Source: Asterionella formosa
Taxonomy: Eukaryota
Assembly (NCBI GenBank): GCA_002256025.1
Contig: NKIB01012745.1
Coordinates: 1 to 64,000 of the forward strand
Reading direction: 5' to 3'
DNA length: 64,000 nt
Shown here piece by piece: positions 19,895-27,624 of the stretch. The translations under genes and the position numbers were made by a program. The notes beneath the pieces were generated by a model, which saw only the letters and a program-made list of their open reading frames with translations, was not told where the DNA came from and searched no databases. Numbering within the stretch: the stretch's first letter is position 1; the number at the start of each line of letters is the position of its first letter.

Positions 19895-22800
19895 TTAGGT
19901 TAGTCCCGCATTTATGGGCTTGGCCAACTGCATCAATCCTCCTTCGCTTACAGGGAGCCGACGCTTCTCCTGTAAGTCAGCTTCATCTTCGGCTGCTTCC
20001 CGTTCAGCAATCGCTTTCTTTCTAGCTTCCGCCTCTCGGTAATCCTGTGCAATTCTTTCATCGAACTCCTTTCGCTCTTGCGCTCGATTCTTTGAAGCAA
20101 GCTCCGGCGAAAAAGGTTCTACCAGCTTCTTTGTGACCTTGGGAGTGATTGGTTTATAATTTTGAGTTTGGGAGAGGCCTTGCCTTCGGCGTGGAAAGTG
20201 TGCGGCGTTCGCTTTCCAATGACATTCGCTCACGCCTTTCCTTCTCGCAAAAATTATCATGAAGGATAAGGCTCTTTAACCGGAACGGTTGAGCGCTCGT
20301 CAAAGGCCTTTGCGATTGAATCTTTTGCGGAGGTGGAGTGAGTTTAAGAGGTCTTGCATGAAAGGATCGCAAGCATTTCTCAGCTTCTAACTCAGTCTGA
20401 CGCTTTATTTCCAACCGATGCTGAGAGATTCCGTGGCGTAGTGTGCTTGACAGCTGAAATGGTTTTGCTTCAGTTGGTGTTGTTGGTGAGAACATATGAG
20501 CATTGGCCATTTCTTGTAGATGCTTTTCATGTTGTTTTCTCAATTTCATCCGTTCTTTTTGTTTTGTGATCATTTCTGCGTTTTTCCTCGACGCTTCTTT
20601 CGACGCCATGCGTATCTCAGTTCTACCGGAAGTCGCCAACCTTGGGGGTTGACTGATTGGATTCGCCTTAGTTACAATTGTCATAGGAACGCCGTCTGCG
20701 TTTAGCCTTTGTGGCGGACCCACGAATGTTGAACGTGGAAGCGGAATCGCCCTGAACTGTTTATTCATCTCAATTTCGTCTGGTGTGGCTTGGCGAGGCT
20801 GCGCCTTCAGTCTTCTTTCGTCGGTTGCCAATCGAAATGGTTCTGGGGTAGTTACCACTTTTGGTCTGACAGCCTCTGGATTCGAATTAGAGCGATACGA
20901 CAAATCAGGTAGAGGTCGAGCATGAAACTGCTTTTTACATTCTTCCAAATCAACCTTTGATCGATATTCCTCAGTCGCTGCAAGGGATGCCTTCGACAAA
21001 GTAGCACGTTGGTCACATTTTAGGTGAAAAGGCTCTGCGATTGTAAGCTTCCTTTTCTTTGCCTTCGGAACACCAACGTCACCTTTGCTAGAACTCAACG
21101 AAATTTTCATTTGCGAAGCCTTAAATGGGTGCGTATTGTAGTACTCCATCATCTCTTCCTCTTTCTCCGATGTACTCTTGGGCACTGCTCGTTTCGGAAG
21201 AGGTGTAAAATTCGGAGACTTTGGGATTGTAAGAGTCATTTCGCGATCCAAGCTCGTAACCGGTATGTCCTCGCGTAAGCCTTTTTCCCAGAAATAATTC
21301 ATACTTTCCGCAAGACTTCGCTCTTCCTTGTCTTTTGACGGAGCTATTCTTGTTACCTTGGATTCGTGGAAATTGAAAGGCTCTGGCGTAGTGAGGTTGA
21401 GGTTGGTAGTGGTGTTCATGATGTTCGAGATTACATTCTCTGGCACTTTCGGTTTTTCTTTCCAGTGAGTAGGAGGTGGTTTATTTCCATATTTTGCTTG
21501 CGTTGACAGTTTTGGAGACCTTGGCACTGTGAGAGACCTCGTCTCACTTACAACGCGAACAGGAGTTTTTCCGGAGGACGAATTTTTCTCATAAATTGAT
21601 GGAGTGATCTTTTCGCCGTACTTTGTACTCATCGACAGCCGTGGCCCCTTCGGTATAGTAACATGATTTTTAGACAATCTACTAGTTGAAGATTCACGAG
21701 TTGATGTTGCAGGGACTTCATCACTCGGAGGAACAAACTTTCTTGTTGAAGGGTTCGATTTCAAATTTCCTTCTACTTTCTCACCACTTGTAGAGTATGC
21801 CCCCATCGCTCGAGAAGACTTCGCTACTGGCTTAACACGTTCGCTGATTACCATGCGTCGCAATTTTCCTTCGGCCTCGTTTGCCCCATCCCGCAATTGC
21901 TGCTGTTTTACACGCTCACGAGCACGGGCCCGCCCTTCATCAGCACTTATTGCCTTGTCACGTACGCTAGTTTTAGTGGATACGGCATGCCGCTCGGCGA
22001 AGTCGTCTGATTGAGATTGCTTCTGTTTTTCTAGCAGCTGATGTTGCCTGATTCTGGATCGAGCCTTTGCAATTTCGTCGTCGGAATTGAAAAGTGGCTT
22101 TTCTCTTGATATCACCGCAACTTCCTTGATACTTGTCGAACTAGAAGTCAAACTGTTCGAGACAGGAGTCGAAACAATTTTCCTTTGCTGAAGCGGCTGT
22201 GTTTTGGGTACTGGTACGACAGGGATGTTTGTGTGTGTGGTCGGTAACGATGAAGACCCACCTGATGGCCTGGAAACAGAGAGTTTCACATTTGGAGGTT
22301 TTACTTGACGTTTTTGAGTGTTGAAACTACTTGGAACTTTTCGGGCAATGCTCTCCCCTTTTTCAGGAACAACTGAGAGGATAGGAGGTCTCGCATTCGG
22401 AAGGAATGCTCTGTCCTCAGAAATCTTATCCTCCAGTGATCGTAGCAGAAAAGCATTATGTTTGATGAGACTGCATTGTGTTGTCCCCTTCACATTTACA
22501 TCTGGACACAGTGTAGAGACTTCCGAATCACCTTTGGGTGCCAGACTTATCGGGACACTTTCGTCGGCAAATGATGCAGCTAAAGCGCTAAACCGGGGAG
22601 ATGCGTCTTCATTCGATTGCTTTGTTGAATCAATAAGTCTTTCGTCAAAAGACGCCTGTCGTTCAGAACTACGGGGCGTAACATGCCCATTCACATGAAT
22701 ATTGGGCGGCGTTCTTGCTGGCGAGGGATTTGTTTTCGACCATGATTCCTGAGTCCTCGGAGATAGTGCTTTTGCTGGAGTGTTTGAAGTTGAAGGAATT

Positions 22801-23891
22801 ATTTGAAACTTTGGTTTTGATAGCCGATCATAAAAATCCTCCTTCTGAGCGGTATGGCTTGGACCATTGCTTGCTGGTGAGCTTTTATGTGACTTCGACA
22901 GTGATTCGGCCGTCATTTCTACCGACAAAGACGGCGTAAAAGCCTGATGAACAAGCGCTGATTCCCGAGGAGACGCCGTTCGCGGAATTTTCATGGGGAA
23001 GACTGTATCATCTAATTTTCTCAATAGGGTCTGTTTCTTTTCCGATCTTGTCGACGTGGGGTCTGATGTTGACTCAGTAGAGGGCTCGATATCTGAAAGA
23101 AAAGATTCATCTACTCCTCGTGTATTTGACATATACGGCGGTGTGGCCTGAGGAGCTGGATCAGCAGCTTGAACTAATTGATGAGATCCACTGCCGAATG
23201 GAGTTTCTACTGAACCCTCCCGTTTTGTGTCTAAGCGCGACTCAAGCTCCTCTTGTTTACTACTCGAAGGAGAAGTCACTACTTCTGAAGTTTGGACTTC
23301 TTGAGGCATTCTAACCATGGAAGTGGTTTCAATTGATTTTTCTCCTTGCGTGCTTCGAACCCAAGTGTCTAATACCAACTCAGGCTCCTCATGGTGCTTC
23401 GTGGCAGACGCGAACTCTTCATCAGCCAATAGTAGTTCATTTCCTTGGAGCTGTGCAAATGCAGAGATCGTGAACAGCTCTTCTGACTGATCATCCATAT
23501 GAGGAGTTGATTTCGACGGACTGGTAATAGAAATTCCAGAAATATTCATTTTAGTGGGCGAAATCATCACATCGCTCTTGGGAGAAAACATCTGAGCCCC
23601 TTTGAATTTACCCATAACTTCGTCCCGTAATAGTCGATCGTCGTCATCTTCGAGCATATTATTGTACTTTGGAGTTGTACTGTCATCATCGTCGCAGATT
23701 GTTGATGACCTTGAAGGGGAATCCAAATGCCCCCGCAAGCTCATCTGAGTTGCTCGTAGCGTTGCCTTGGCTTCATCGATGAAGGCAGCTAATGAATCCG
23801 GAACAAAGTCCTCCGTTTCAGTAGAGAGAAAGTCTTCAAAGGTTTCTTGCCCTTCCAACTTGTCGCAAAACAGCGAGGCGAAAGAATCCAT
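19895..23891 (-). CDS. TPX2: TPX2-like microtubule-associated protein; C-terminal end lies in a second frame (apparent 1-bp frameshift near 20160)
   Basis: Repeated TPX2-type motifs LTVPRSPKL, TTPEPFNF, LTIPKSPNF, HPFKA, LTIAEPFHL, FHARPLP, TTPEPFRLATDER. ORF 19895-20260 supplies the terminal VEPFSPELASKNRAQERKEFDERI. Confidence 0.75.
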
Positions 23892-25044
23892 CGTTGCTTA
23901 GAGTATTGTGAGTAAAAGTAAAAAATATGCTGATCGCAACGCCACAATCGATCCTGGTTGGTAGCAATGCTATCCTTCGGATGATTGCGACGAAAGCAAT
24001 GCTCGATTCGTGATGATTTCCCGTCAAAGTCTTAGGTTCATTTATATTCAATACGAAATATACGGTTTACAATAGAGTATATAATGATACCTATGTATGA
24101 CCTATTGACACAATACCACCAGATGCTGGGTACCAGGTACCAGTACCAGGTACCTGGTACCCTGGTCCTGGTACCACCCAGGTAGACTGCTTGCTAGCCA
24201 AGAATGCTGGTTCACTCCTTAGCATCATGGCGTTCATGTTTGCGTACCGGTACGATGTCTACATATTCATTTGGATGCACAGACCGATGTACAAAGAAGA
24301 AGATTTTTTCAACGGCTGCTTTTTCAAAGGTTGCTATGCCATGTATGCTACATACCGGTATACCGGTACCAGATACCAAGGGTACCCTGGTAGCATTCAT
24401 CAAACTACTTACGGTACCTGGTACCAGGTACTGGTATATACGCCTGTTTTATTTACCGCTAGACTAAGACATACCGGTAGTATTATCTCTTATCACTATT
24501 ATACTGCGGTATGATTCCTAGTATCCTCAGCTTTTGAAACCAGGAACTACCGGTAGGTAATCTAGTGACCGGTATTGCATTGCTCATCAATCTTTACTGC
24601 TTGCTTTCAATTCGTCTACCGGTACATTCTACATACCGGTAGTCTTCTATACAGTTCTTTGGGATCATGAACTGCTAGACGAGGCTAGCACGTGCAAAGT
24701 GGTCGTATTACCCGGGACAGGACCTGGTACCAGGGGTACCAGGCAGTTTTACCAAGTGGTATACCGGGATACCAGATACGATTGATATCGAGAAGGATAC
24801 CAGTGTACATGTATATAATGTATGTAGGGTTCGGATTTTGTTTTCTCCCGTGCGTCGTTAATTAATACCGGGTAATTAGCTAATACAGTACCAGGTACCG
24901 TCGGATTTTCTTGCTTTTTCGGCGTAATAACTTCACGAGCGAACTACCACAATTTGAAAGAAAAAGCGACCACATGCATGAGGTGTCAAATGCATGTCAT
25001 AATAATGTTGGAATCGACCTAATAGCAAGAAAAGAAACAGCCTG

Positions 25045-26511
25045 ATGCATACGCCATTCTTTTCCATCTTCGTTGCAATCACTATAGTTCCTGAAGTTGT
25101 GAAAGCATGGCTCGCTACGTCTTCCCCTTGCCATCGTCGAGGTGCACGATTGAGTGGAACAACGATGAATGCACAAGCACATTCACCCAAAAGTGTAGTC
25201 ATTGTGGGTGGAGGGATCGGAGGCTTATCGTCCGCCTATGATGCTCGTCATATTTTACACCCGACTGACAAGGTTACAGTGGTTAGCGCCAATGATCTGT
25301 TTCAGTTTACTCCAAGTAATCCCTGGGTCGCGATCCGCAAGCGTTCTGCCGACGACATTAGTCTGCCACTGCACAGAATTTTGCCAAAGTATAAGATTGA
25401 TTTTATACACGGTACAGCTGTCAAGCTTGACCCGAAAGAACAACTTCTGACACTCCAAGATGGAAAAATAGTCTCATATGATTATTTGATCATTGCCACG
25501 GGCCCAAAGTTGGGGTTTGACGAAGTTCCTGGCATGAGGGAGTGGTCAGCTTCCATTTGCACAACACCTCATGCTGCTTCGACTGCCGAAGCCTTGGATA
25601 GAATCGTCAAAGAACCTGGTCCAATCGTAATTGGCGCCACTCAGGGAGCTTCTTGCTTTGGACCTGCCTACGAATTTGCACTGTTGGTCCATTTTGAATT
25701 GCAACGCCGTGGAGGAAATGCCCTCTTGGATCAATGCAAAATAACATTTGTTACTCCCGAACCATATATTGGTCACCTGGGTTTGGGCGGGGCGGGTAAG
25801 TCTAAGGAGATTCTTGAGCGTTCCCTTAAAGCAAGGAATATCGACTATATTACGAACTGCCGAGTGAACCGCGTCTCGTCTGACAGTGTAACAATTGAAC
25901 ATTATACTGGTAATAAAAATGCGACAGAACAGAAAACCCTTAGCAGCAAATTCACAATGCTTATTCCACCCTTTCGAGGCCATTCTGTTTGGGCATCTGT
26001 GCCCGGGCTGACAGACAAGAATGGCATGATTGCTGTTAATGCGCAGCAACAATCTCGAGCATTTCCTACTATTTTTGGTGTGGGTGTCTGTGTTAGCTTT
26101 CCACCTCTGGAGAAGACTATGGTTCCCACGGGGGTTCCAAAGACAGGTTACATGATTGAGAGCATGGGGACAGCAGCGGTAAAGAATATCAAGTTTCTGA
26201 TAAATGATTCCCCAACGAATGAATTTGTTGCTCTTCCACATATCCCCACATTGAATGGACTCTGTATCACTGATTTTGGAGAGGACGGAGCAATCTTTCT
26301 GACCCTCCCACAAATTCCCCCCCGTCGCCTCGACGTGACGTTGAATGGCAAAGTAGCAACGCTTGGCAAGATTGCCTTTGAAAGATATTTTTTGCACAAG
26401 ATTGAAAGCGGAGATACAGACCCTTACTACGAGAAATACTTGCTTCATTTGATTGGAATTGACCGAACCTTGACGCAACCCTCCACTCTTTCCGAGGGAC
26501 AACCGGCTTAA
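25045..26511 (+). CDS. sqr: Sulfide:quinone oxidoreductase, bacterial type I (SqrA)-like, with putative bipartite plastid presequence
   Basis: FAD-binding VGGGIGG; FTPSNPWVA; YDYLIIATGP; SICTTPHA; GASCFGPAYEF; VPTGVPKTGYMIESM; CITDFG; LPQIPPR; KIAFERYFLHK...DPYYEK. Intronless, with a ~45-aa N-terminal extension. Confidence 0.92.
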   Translation: MHTPFFSIFVAITIVPEVVKAWLATSSPCHRRGARLSGTTMNAQAHSPKSVVIVGGGIGGLSSAYDARHILHPTDKVTVVSANDLFQFTPSNPWVAIRKRSADDISLPLHRILPKYKIDFIHGTAVKLDPKEQLLTLQDGKIVSYDYLIIATGPKLGFDEVPGMREWSASICTTPHAASTAEALDRIVKEPGPIVIGATQGASCFGPAYEFALLVHFELQRRGGNALLDQCKITFVTPEPYIGHLGLGGAGKSKEILERSLKARNIDYITNCRVNRVSSDSVTIEHYTGNKNATEQKTLSSKFTMLIPPFRGHSVWASVPGLTDKNGMIAVNAQQQSRAFPTIFGVGVCVSFPPLEKTMVPTGVPKTGYMIESMGTAAVKNIKFLINDSPTNEFVALPHIPTLNGLCITDFGEDGAIFLTLPQIPPRRLDVTLNGKVATLGKIAFERYFLHKIESGDTDPYYEKYLLHLIGIDRTLTQPSTLSEGQPA

Positions 26512-26847
26512 GGGATCCCATGCTTTTATTTTTGGTTAGCAAATACAACATTACAAGAAATTCCAAGGCAATACAATGCGAAATATGACAGGATACTTAC
26601 ATAGTTATATGCTATTATGTTTACAATGCGAAAGATACGACAGGATACTTGCATGGGTATATGCCATTATGTTTACACTTCTCACTCTCATTCATTGATT
26701 TATCAAATATTCGTACCCATCTTGTATAATATATATATACATTTAAATGCTTATAGACATACCGGTATGTTTACAACAGACCACGACTGGAAGTGTAACC
26801 ATTTGCTTTTACTTTATGCGATATGAGTTCCTCATAAACACAAAAAT

Positions 26848-27624
26848 TCACCAAGATGAAAGCTGCATGTTCATTGGCGGATCCCCACCTATCGTCGTGT
26901 AGACATCATTAGCCGTCATGGGATCAAAGGATAGCATATACAACAAACAAAGCTGGCTAAGGGCCACAATGGCCAAGACGGCAACAGCTCCAAATGAAAA
27001 ACCCTCTTGTCGTGTTTCATTTCCCGTGGAATCTGTACTTAAATCGATTCCCAAAAATTGCTTTGCAGCTCGGATATCCTCTTGTGACGAGGAGACAGGG
27101 CCATTCGGAGCCACAATTCGGATCCCTGGAATGATTGTCCTGAGAGACTCCTCGTTGGAAAGGGACGTTTCGTAACATTGTAATGCCTGTTGGATTTGTT
27201 CCGAAGTTGGTCGATCTTTGCCTTCAGAAGATAATTCGCTTGACTTGATCCTGCGTAACTCAGTAAGCGCTTCCTTCCGACGCACGGATGCTTCATTGAC
27301 TTGAGATATCCGGATTTGAAGCAACGAAAAGACCACGACAATCAAAAGGAAGGACCCCAATGCTGGCATGTTGATAACAGGTTCAAAAACTTGGGCTGAT
27401 TATTATGTTAGATTCTCGAATGCGTACATAAATCGGCAACATCCTGAGCATAACTCACCTCCAAGCTGCGATGGATCTTCAAACGATGCACTGAGGGCAC
27501 TGGCCAAAGATCTAGAGAGGTCGTTATTATCAACATACCTAATTCTGAGATTGCACGACGATCTAGGTGCTGTCGATTTCAGGGCATTCGCGAATGCGAG
27601 AGGTGGACGAAGATGAACGGTCAT
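26848..27624 (-). CDS. Uncharacterised two-TM membrane protein; 2 exons (27624-27459, 27395-26848)
   Basis: A GTGAGT...CAG intron 27458-27396 joins the ORFs in frame (…SQLG/AQVFEPVINMPALGSFLL…); two hydrophobic segments. True start is uncertain. Confidence 0.7.

Follow-up and report, generated by a model that had tools for sequence, protein, structure and literature searches.

The first 64,000 nucleotides of contig NKIB01012745.1 (GenBank assembly GCA_002256025.1) of the diatom Asterionella formosa, the stretch referred to here as the window, carry at positions 25045..26511 of the forward strand a gene for a putative sulfide:quinone oxidoreductase (SQR). By sequence, residue and phylogeny criteria, its product fits the type I SQRs and not the mitochondrial type II enzyme. 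The gene probably encodes the precursor of a type I (SqrA-like) SQR that would be made at the cytosol/endoplasmic reticulum (ER), imported into the complex plastid, and there transfer electrons from sulfide to plastoquinone; we consider this reading probable, with some reserve. What is rated as new is an apparently monophyletic algal subfamily of type I SQR with a plastid-type presequence.

The open reading frame (ORF) consists of 488 codons plus a stop and begins with ATG, at the position and on the strand given by an earlier, sequence-only reading of the window. Two in-frame stops at 25000-25005 close the frame on its 5' side, so that 25045 is the first in-frame ATG. All motifs quoted in that reading were located in the translation, namely MNAQAHS (from residue 41), SICT (170), GASCFGP (201), PKTGYMIESM (365), GLCITDFG (405), KIAFERYF (442) and PYYEK (460). 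RNA contigs are colinear with the DNA and show no joints; the gene is therefore intronless, as had been stated. The extension ahead of the Rossmann fold is also present, but its length had been given as about 45 residues and is actually 50, since VVIVGGGIGG starts at residue 51. The features of the gene are:

25045..26511 (+): complete intronless coding sequence of a type I-like SQR precursor (ORF; match to the Protein Data Bank, PDB, over residues 50-476; RNA contigs colinear)
25045..25107 (+): signal-peptide-like segment, residues 1-21, with the h-region FFSIFVAITIV and predicted cleavage after VKA (hydropathy; absent in bacterial homologues)
25108..25194 (+): transit-peptide-like segment, residues 22-50, with Trp22 as first residue (+1 aromatic) (composition; orthologues share the design)
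25165..25167 (+): codon of the internal Met41, a rival start chosen by a prokaryote-style gene call (the ESM Atlas entry begins at residue 41)
25195..25224 (+): residues 51-60, VVIVGGGIGG, first Rossmann strand and GxGxxG FAD-binding motif (G55, G57 and G60 invariant)
25558..25560 (+): codon of Cys172 (SICT), aligned with the first conserved SQR cysteine
25654..25656 (+): codon of Cys204 (GASCFGP), putative redox-active cysteine by alignment
26263..26265 (+): codon of Cys407 (GLCITDFG), putative redox-active cysteine by alignment
26350..26466 (+): conserved segment near the C-terminus, residues 436-474 (KIAFERYF...PYYEKYLLHLIGIDR), which aligns with the corresponding part of solved type I SQRs

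The mature part of the protein was compared with solved structures by phmmer. Residues 50-476 matched the full length of the "sulfide-quinone reductase" 3sz0/3kpk, which we take to be the type I SQR of Acidithiobacillus ferrooxidans, with an E-value of 2.8e-115 (389 bits), and the same residues matched 3hyv, presumably the type I SQR of Aquifex aeolicus, with an E-value of 8e-110 (371 bits). Weaker matches were found to 3h8i (E 9e-24, 87 bits) and to flavocytochrome c sulfide dehydrogenases (E ~1e-9), while the mitochondrial type II enzyme SQOR (6oi5) reached only E ~1e-12 (51 bits) in a partial alignment of residues 50-368. A separation of about 100 orders of magnitude bears out the earlier assignment to the bacterial type I enzymes as opposed to the mitochondrial type II enzyme, and because the match to a solved SQR exceeds chance to such a degree, the quoted SQR motifs are not accidental. 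Pfam recognised only the generic Pyr_redox_2 domain (E 2.8e-16, residues 50-350). NCBIfam holds no type I SQR model, and the best match in it was a type III selenoprotein model with 79 bits against a cut-off of 525 bits. The ESM Atlas model of the window protein (pTM 0.91) superposes on a Pseudomonadota cluster named "Sulfide-quinone reductase" with a TM-score of 0.93, and the Atlas searches yielded Pseudomonadota SQR clusters only.

The three cysteines of the window protein align with chain positions 131, 163 and 359 of 3sz0 (tag offset 3), which we take to be Cys128, Cys160 and Cys356 of the type I enzyme. His176, His244 and the AFEKYF segment (Phe445) were also aligned, and residues 436-476 align without gaps with the C-terminus of 3sz0. 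From the crystal structures, the amphipathic helices for membrane binding presumably lie in this C-terminal segment, as does part of the quinone site (Phe445). Conservation was assessed in an alignment of 73 main-clade eukaryotic, 14 second-clade and 45 bacterial sequences (the two clades are described below). Cys172 is present in all 73 main-clade and all 45 bacterial sequences. Cys204 and Cys407 each occur in 72 of the 73 main-clade sequences, the exceptions being a Ser in P0041 (Nitzschia inconspicua) and a Ser in P0069, respectively, and Cys407 is found in 13 of the 14 second-clade sequences (Arg in P0277). His176 and His244 are present in every row with a letter at the column, His176 being gapped in two of the 14 second-clade rows. 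Phe445 is kept in 70 of the 73 main-clade sequences, and E446, Y448 and F449 are conserved. Taken at the level of aligned residues, the pattern is that of an enzyme under selection for the SQR reaction. The cysteine losses in P0041, P0069 and P0277 are possibly sequencing errors or marks of functionally diverged paralogues.

A variety of homologues were found in algae and bacteria. A word-indexed search yielded, among the matches listed, at least about 70 eukaryote-type homologues, mostly of 430-570 residues, with 47-68% identity to the window protein. Those with a name come from Cyclotella atomus, Cyclotella cf. meneghiniana, Nitzschia inconspicua, a Bacillariaceae metagenome-assembled genome (MAG), Amphora coffeiformis, and the MMETSP/EukProt transcriptomes; the bacterial SQRs in the same list have 422-432 residues and 44-50% identity. 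No named homologue from Phaeodactylum or Thalassiosira was among the matches listed, which is a lead only, as about a quarter of the proteins were named. A second eukaryote-like group, which came out as the sister of the first, consists of P0123 and P0267-P0279 and includes one MMETSP transcript. The database names are generic or automatic, such as "sulfide:quinone oxidoreductase" and "FAD-dependent pyridine nucleotide-disulfide oxidoreductase". An exhaustive search of 1.84 billion cluster representatives gave 4344 relatives with an E-value of 0.001 or less, 166 of them with E <= 1e-30, and 569 loci were confirmed in species-representative prokaryote genomes. The best 80 of these 569 loci belong to Pseudomonadota except for one Pseudobdellovibrionaceae MAG, with 40-50% identity and no cyanobacterial locus among them. 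In a separate observation, P0059, labelled as coming from an Alexandrium tamarense scaffold, is nearly the same as P0012 (MMETSP/JGI, diatom clade) except for an internal deletion, the tree distance being about 0.006; it is probably cross-contamination or a mis-assigned dataset and not a dinoflagellate gene.

Phylogenetic analyses were based on two samples of these sequences. The FastTree phylogeny had 158 rows (62 eukaryote-type sequences of at least 430 residues, every second of 79 named bacterial loci, and 55 representatives of at least 385 residues), and all eukaryote-type rows fell into a single clade with a local support of 99. A quick search with IQ-TREE under LG+C20+F+G4 was run on 74 hand-picked rows, comprising the window protein, 26 of the 62 main-clade sequences, eight second-clade sequences, 18 of the 79 named bacterial loci, 15 representatives and six distant outgroup sequences. 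In this tree both eukaryotic groups formed one clade (SH-aLRT 99), sister to a clade with all named Pseudomonadota loci (support of the union 96). The best plasmid matches of the representative P0134 by tblastn were pSYSM of Synechocystis 6803 (58.7%) and pAQ7 of Picosynechococcus PCC 7002 (55.1%). The tree was then extended by three named cyanobacterial SQRs. In the extended tree, the cyanobacterial SQRs and P0134 formed a clade (support 100) outside the group that joins an Aquificota-like pair to the Pseudomonadota-type SQRs and the eukaryotes, and the union of the latter two had a support of 98. The eukaryote clade hence falls inside a group bounded by named cyanobacterial type I and Pseudomonadota SQRs. 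The grouping with type I expected by the sequence-only reading was recovered, in a tree that contains no named references of types III-VI.

The window protein is 37% identical to the SQR of PCC 7002. Forcing the eukaryotes to group with the cyanobacteria cost 42.5 log-likelihood units (p-AU 0.026); the hypothesis of this AU test was a biological and prior one, and the free tree had been seen before the test. A cyanobacterial (endosymbiotic) origin was therefore considered and is disfavoured by both tree position and p-AU: because the cyanobacterial clade lies outside and the forced grouping is disfavoured, the diatom SQR would not be a relic of the plastid's cyanobacterial ancestor. The naming of a donor lineage was rejected, since with the present sampling the eukaryotes branch next to the Pseudomonadota-type clade, as its sister group, and not from within it. 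In our reading, the trees point to a bacterial type I SQR that complex-plastid algae acquired long ago, either once or in a few linked events. As judged from these comparisons, the gene is a member of an old, widely shared algal family and not a special acquisition of A. formosa. Of the horizontal acquisition proposed in the sequence-only reading, the bacterial-type origin was thus retained and a diatom-specific event was not, since the eukaryote-type homologues form one shared clade.

In diatoms, a bipartite plastid presequence is made up of a signal peptide, an aromatic residue or Leu at position +1, and a hydroxylated, basic, acid-poor tail. The residues F/W/Y/L at +1 reportedly separate stromal cargo from periplastidial and secretory cargo. 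In the extension of the window protein, the best 9-residue Kyte-Doolittle mean is 2.78, starting at residue 7, and the VKA|W junction lies at residues 19-22. The predicted cleavage site is EVVKA|WLATS, with A at -1, V at -3 and W22 at +1, and the tail of 29 residues (22-50) contains eight S/T, four R/K and no D/E. Hydropathy and composition counts hence agree with the hydrophobic stretch, the VKA|W junction and the acid-free S/T/R-rich tail that had been noticed by eye. The bacterial homologues whose Rossmann motif was recognised by pattern all start three residues before it (MAH, MSH and similar), and the few missed by the pattern also have MAH- or MAN-type leads. The eukaryotic homologues have 26-126 extra residues ahead of the motif.

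The design of these extensions was counted in 55 of the 120 listed proteins, namely those that start with M and have 25 or more residues before a recognisable Rossmann motif, fragments and rows without a pattern-recognised motif being left out; all 55 are eukaryote-type. A 9-residue mean hydropathy of at least 2.0 was reached in 51 of them. Cleavage sites were predicted by a crude rule, which demands A/G/S/C at -1 and a small or aliphatic residue at -3 near the end of the hydrophobic core, and prefers F/W where there are several sites. The predicted +1 residue was F in 34 extensions, L in seven, W in five and Y in one (F/W/Y/L in 47/55); F or W stood at +1 in 39/55, versus 16% of shuffled tails under the identical rule. 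An AKA|W or KA|W junction also occurs in P0014 and P0043. In the second clade, all ten full-length members show a predicted signal peptide with F or L directly after it, with junctions such as CADG|F, CVDA|F and VNA|F and tails of 10-15 residues. Between species, the extensions cannot be aligned, whereas identity in the mature parts is 50-70%. Unalignable extensions of one design on conserved mature parts suggest a functional targeting peptide and not a leader that is open by chance. In its form, the extension appears to be a diatom bipartite plastid presequence of the ASAFAP type, a design that appears common to two deep clades. The apparent plastid presequence of the earlier reading accordingly kept its standing, as its form fits and recurs in most orthologues and in the second algal clade, and the predicted plastid import of the window SQR is well supported by this comparison.

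The gene is also represented in RNA. Thirteen public runs contain the gene stretch, 11 of which, from ten studies, are recorded as RNA, with poly(A) libraries among them. Four runs from three studies were mapped as contigs onto the window. The contig of X1 (poly(A)) covers 25046-26900 with no differences and that of X4 (poly(A)) covers 24948-26900; the contigs of X2 cover 24989-25097 and onward, and those of X7 (25033-25907 and 25945-26718) stem from a strain that differs slightly. The part coding for the extension is included in RNA, as contigs from three runs and two studies reach 12-97 bases 5' of 25045. The leader can be given as follows:

24948..25044 (+): 5' leader in RNA contigs (which reach 24948, 24989 and 25033), with short upstream ORFs (uORFs)

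One uORF of 23 codons begins at 24974 and ends in a TGA (25043-25045) whose last base is the A of the main ATG (TGATG), an overlap compatible with termination-reinitiation; other short uORFs begin at 24978, 24990 and 25005. At the other end, the contigs of X1 and X4 extend 389 and 831 bases past 26900 into a convergent ORF of 183 amino acids (aa) at 26848-27399 (-), which has no Pfam match, and this run-on suggests overlapping 3' ends or read-through between the SQR gene and the convergent ORF. In the ESM Atlas, the entry of the window protein starts at Met41, the presequence apparently having been stripped by prokaryote-style gene calling on metagenomes. Because such calling drops the presequence, database copies of the SQR family may systematically hide the targeting signal.

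The genes next to the SQR gene include a 1247-aa ORF with a TPX2 domain, an ORF of the histone-deacetylase family and a UTP25 ORF with both UTP25 domains (Pfam). TPX2 and UTP25 are eukaryote-specific. In a homologue search, all organism-named relatives of the UTP25 neighbour were diatoms, at 40-51% identity, from Stephanodiscus, Thalassiosira, Chaetoceros, Seminavis, Nitzschia, Cyclostephanos, Cylindrotheca and Mayamaea. The GC content at third codon positions (GC3) is 0.426 in the SQR gene versus 0.41-0.46 in the neighbours, and its relative synonymous codon usage (RSCU) correlates with that of the pooled neighbours at r 0.58, the neighbours reaching 0.44-0.57 among themselves. Two words, GGTACC with 75 copies and ACCGGT with 63, are over-represented in the window (about 11 expected for either), and the stretch immediately upstream of the gene contains 20 such sites:

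24129..24894 (no strand): upstream intergenic stretch with 20 GGTACC/ACCGGT words (word count)

These sites agree with the remark in the sequence-only reading that the flanks of the gene share footprint words with the rest of the window. Since the SQR gene is flanked by eukaryote-only genes with diatom relatives and has neighbour-like codon usage, it is not contamination; judged from this setting, it is a nuclear, diatom-encoded gene. The earlier view of a nucleus-encoded, non-contaminant gene is upheld by the flanks, the diatom relatives of UTP25, the codon usage and the poly(A) RNA. Two further observations were made on this region. The palindromic words GGTACC and ACCGGT (with the overlapping TACCGG/CCGGTA), at 63-75 copies each, are clustered in intergenic bins and resemble a genome-specific intergenic repeat or regulatory word. 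The ORF at 20154-23897 (-) runs uninterrupted over 1247 aa, is rich in Ser/Thr/Pro/Lys and has a single TPX2_importin domain (E 1.3e-7); it is likely a spindle-associated protein of unusual length.

Based on these data, a route for the protein can be proposed. The precursor would enter the chloroplast ER co-translationally via its signal peptide, which would be cut after Ala21, and the exposed Trp22 with the transit-like tail would bring the protein through the inner membranes of the plastid to the stroma. By means of its C-terminal helices, the mature flavoprotein would then be attached monotopically, from the stromal side, to the thylakoid or the inner envelope membrane. There, H2S/HS- would be oxidized to sulfane sulfur on the Cys204/Cys407 pair, and two electrons would pass via FAD to plastoquinone, the plastoquinol being re-oxidized by cytochrome b6f and photosystem I (PSI) in the light, or by the plastid terminal oxidase. 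The most likely roles of the enzyme would be to keep exogenous sulfide from photosystem II (PSII) and to control the sulfide from plastid assimilatory sulfite reduction. Any electrons delivered to PSI would be a side effect, which might gain importance where sulfide is present and oxygen is low. Assimilatory sulfite reduction is located in plastids, and a plastid SQR would for that reason sit at the site of sulfide production.

Among known systems, the type I SQRs of Pseudomonadota and Aquificota share full-length homology with the diatom protein, together with the three cysteines, two histidines, FAD motif, quinone-site Phe and C-terminal segment. They differ in that the diatom gene is nuclear and its product has a putative presequence of 50 residues, whereas the bacterial proteins have three residues at this place; the eukaryotic proteins also have small specific insertions, e.g., before the third cysteine, and form a clade of their own, sister to the Pseudomonadota type. 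The cyanobacterial type I SQRs (Synechocystis 6803 pSYSM, PCC 7002 pAQ7 and Geitlerinema sqr1) are the same type of enzyme in an oxygenic phototroph, but with the 37% identity noted above for the PCC 7002 enzyme and a clade outside the grouping of eukaryotes and Pseudomonadota. By analogy, the diatom SQR most likely works most like these enzymes. The mitochondrial type II SQR (SQOR/SQRDL) of animals, fungi and other eukaryotes catalyzes the same reaction and belongs to the same flavoprotein superfamily, yet it is very distant (E ~1e-12), has another targeting signal and represents another SQR type.

In PCC 7002, according to the passages on SQR in PMC7042703, the type I SQR detoxifies external sulfide and converts endogenous sulfide to sulfane sulfur, and this sulfane sulfur is needed for normal expression of photosynthesis genes. 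The corresponding passages describe the reduction of plastoquinone by cyanobacterial type I SQR (PMC7042703, PMC5061849), a sulfide-driven electron flow to PSI via SQR in Geitlerinema (PMC5061849), and the feeding of plastoquinone by SQR in cyanobacterial sulfide-dependent anoxygenic photosynthesis (PMC5061849, PMC12658273). In the relevant parts of the literature cited here, mitochondrial type II is the only eukaryotic SQR named, and the transfer from sulfide to plastoquinone is described for cyanobacteria only. No description of a diatom-encoded or plastid-located SQR was found in the full-text literature, with subscription journals and supplementary tables outside the search. SQR is mentioned for bacteria, cyanobacteria or a foraminifer, and in no passage on it for a diatom or a plastid, in PMC13384644, PMC8651085, PMC11736642, PMC5061849, PMC11304991, PMC12658273 and bioRxiv 10.1101/2023.01.30.526236. 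In the ochrophyte plastid-proteome paper of Dorrell et al. (2017; PMC5462543), the terms "sulfide", "sulphide" and "quinone" are all absent from the main text as available, the supplementary tables being outside the search.

Several points weigh against plastid import or against translation from 25045, and they feed the rival explanations. The n-region of the window protein has no basic residue (MHTP), its c-region contains P-E, and the signal-peptide call rests on a crude hydropathy and (-3,-1) rule that prefers F/W. The transit-like tails of P0006, P0023, P0052 and P0055 have only 5-10 residues. A sulfide oxidase that works elsewhere, be it in the mitochondrion, the ER, the periplastidial space or the secretory pathway, is conceivable, though rather unlikely in our judgement: besides the atypical n-region and the very short tails of some orthologues, the location described to date for eukaryotic SQR is the mitochondrion (Theissen et al., 2003, as cited in PMC5061849). 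Such a destination is opposed by a strongly hydrophobic N-terminal core that is unlike a mitochondrial presequence, by the predicted F/W/Y/L at +1 in most of the counted homologues and in every full-length second-clade member, and by an enzyme type outside the mitochondrial type II line. Translation mainly from Met41, which would give a cytosolic enzyme with the upstream 40 codons as a leader open by chance, is considered quite improbable. For it speaks the choice of Met41 by a gene caller, and seven homologues (P0003, P0004, P0008, P0011, P0029, P0033 and P0048) have only 8-15 residues before the fold; P0003 is the second-closest relative of the window protein among the matches listed, and these short leads may be truncated gene calls or true presequence-free forms. 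The uORFs in the longer leader could lower the use of the 25045 ATG. Contigs do not show transcript starts, and that of X1 ends at 25046, one base after the A of the ATG, so that a share of shorter transcripts using Met41 is conceivable. The sequence-only reading had named transcripts beginning downstream as a challenge to the presequence; the contigs of three runs that reach 5' of 25045 speak against them as the sole form, and the end of X1 leaves room for some. The like-designed, unalignable extensions in 51-55 homologues with conserved mature parts also oppose a start at Met41. A bacterial contaminant or a very recent, unexpressed transfer would agree with an intronless gene whose nearest non-eukaryotic relatives are bacterial; it is regarded as extremely improbable, given the eukaryote-only genes on both sides in one contig, the diatom relatives of UTP25, the codon usage, the genome's own intergenic words upstream, the presence of the gene in poly(A) RNA libraries, and an identity of at most 50% to any bacterial protein found versus 55-68% to many diatom proteins.

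The remaining alternative concerns the role and not the enzyme. In this case, the main purpose of the same protein would be sulfide-driven, PSII-independent photosynthetic electron transport in a eukaryotic plastid, an idea we hold only tentatively and think unlikely. It can be put more broadly, as a speculation to which we give little weight, that a plastid type I SQR in diatoms and a related algal lineage runs the thylakoid chain on sulfide while PSII is inhibited. This would amount to a eukaryotic sulfide-dependent (anoxygenic or mixed) photosynthesis with a bacterial acquisition independent of the plastid's cyanobacterial ancestor, which we equally doubt. The plastid-type presequence and the catalytic residues are strongly conserved, and enzymes of this type are the plastoquinone feeders of cyanobacterial anoxygenic photosynthesis in the passages of PMC5061849 and PMC12658273 on that process. 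Against it stands the eukaryote clade itself, which is not derived from the cyanobacterial clade performing the process (AU p 0.026). The RNA found in lake-water and freshwater metatranscriptomes, whose oxygen and sulfide levels are unrecorded, fits a housekeeping role, and the type I SQR of PCC 7002 serves detoxification and endogenous sulfide oxidation in the passages of PMC7042703 on its function. By analogy, detoxification or plastid sulfide homeostasis would be at least as likely a role as sulfide-fed photosynthesis, and on balance the more likely one. The orientation of the enzyme in the plastid does not follow from homology, since a periplasmic site of action is known from some bacterial type I SQRs; this is a further point to be held against the stromal placement proposed above.

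We return to the plastid-imported type I SQR as the preferred reading. If the enzyme reaches the plastid, the sulfur cycle would be coupled directly to the photosynthetic quinone pool of major primary producers. This would bear on the sulfide tolerance of benthic and mat-dwelling diatoms, on the control of plastid sulfide from sulfate assimilation, on persulfide signalling, and on how bacterial genes remodelled complex plastids. Should a sulfide-run thylakoid chain also be true, it could help to explain the persistence of diatoms in sulfidic sediments and microbial mats, and as kleptoplast donors.

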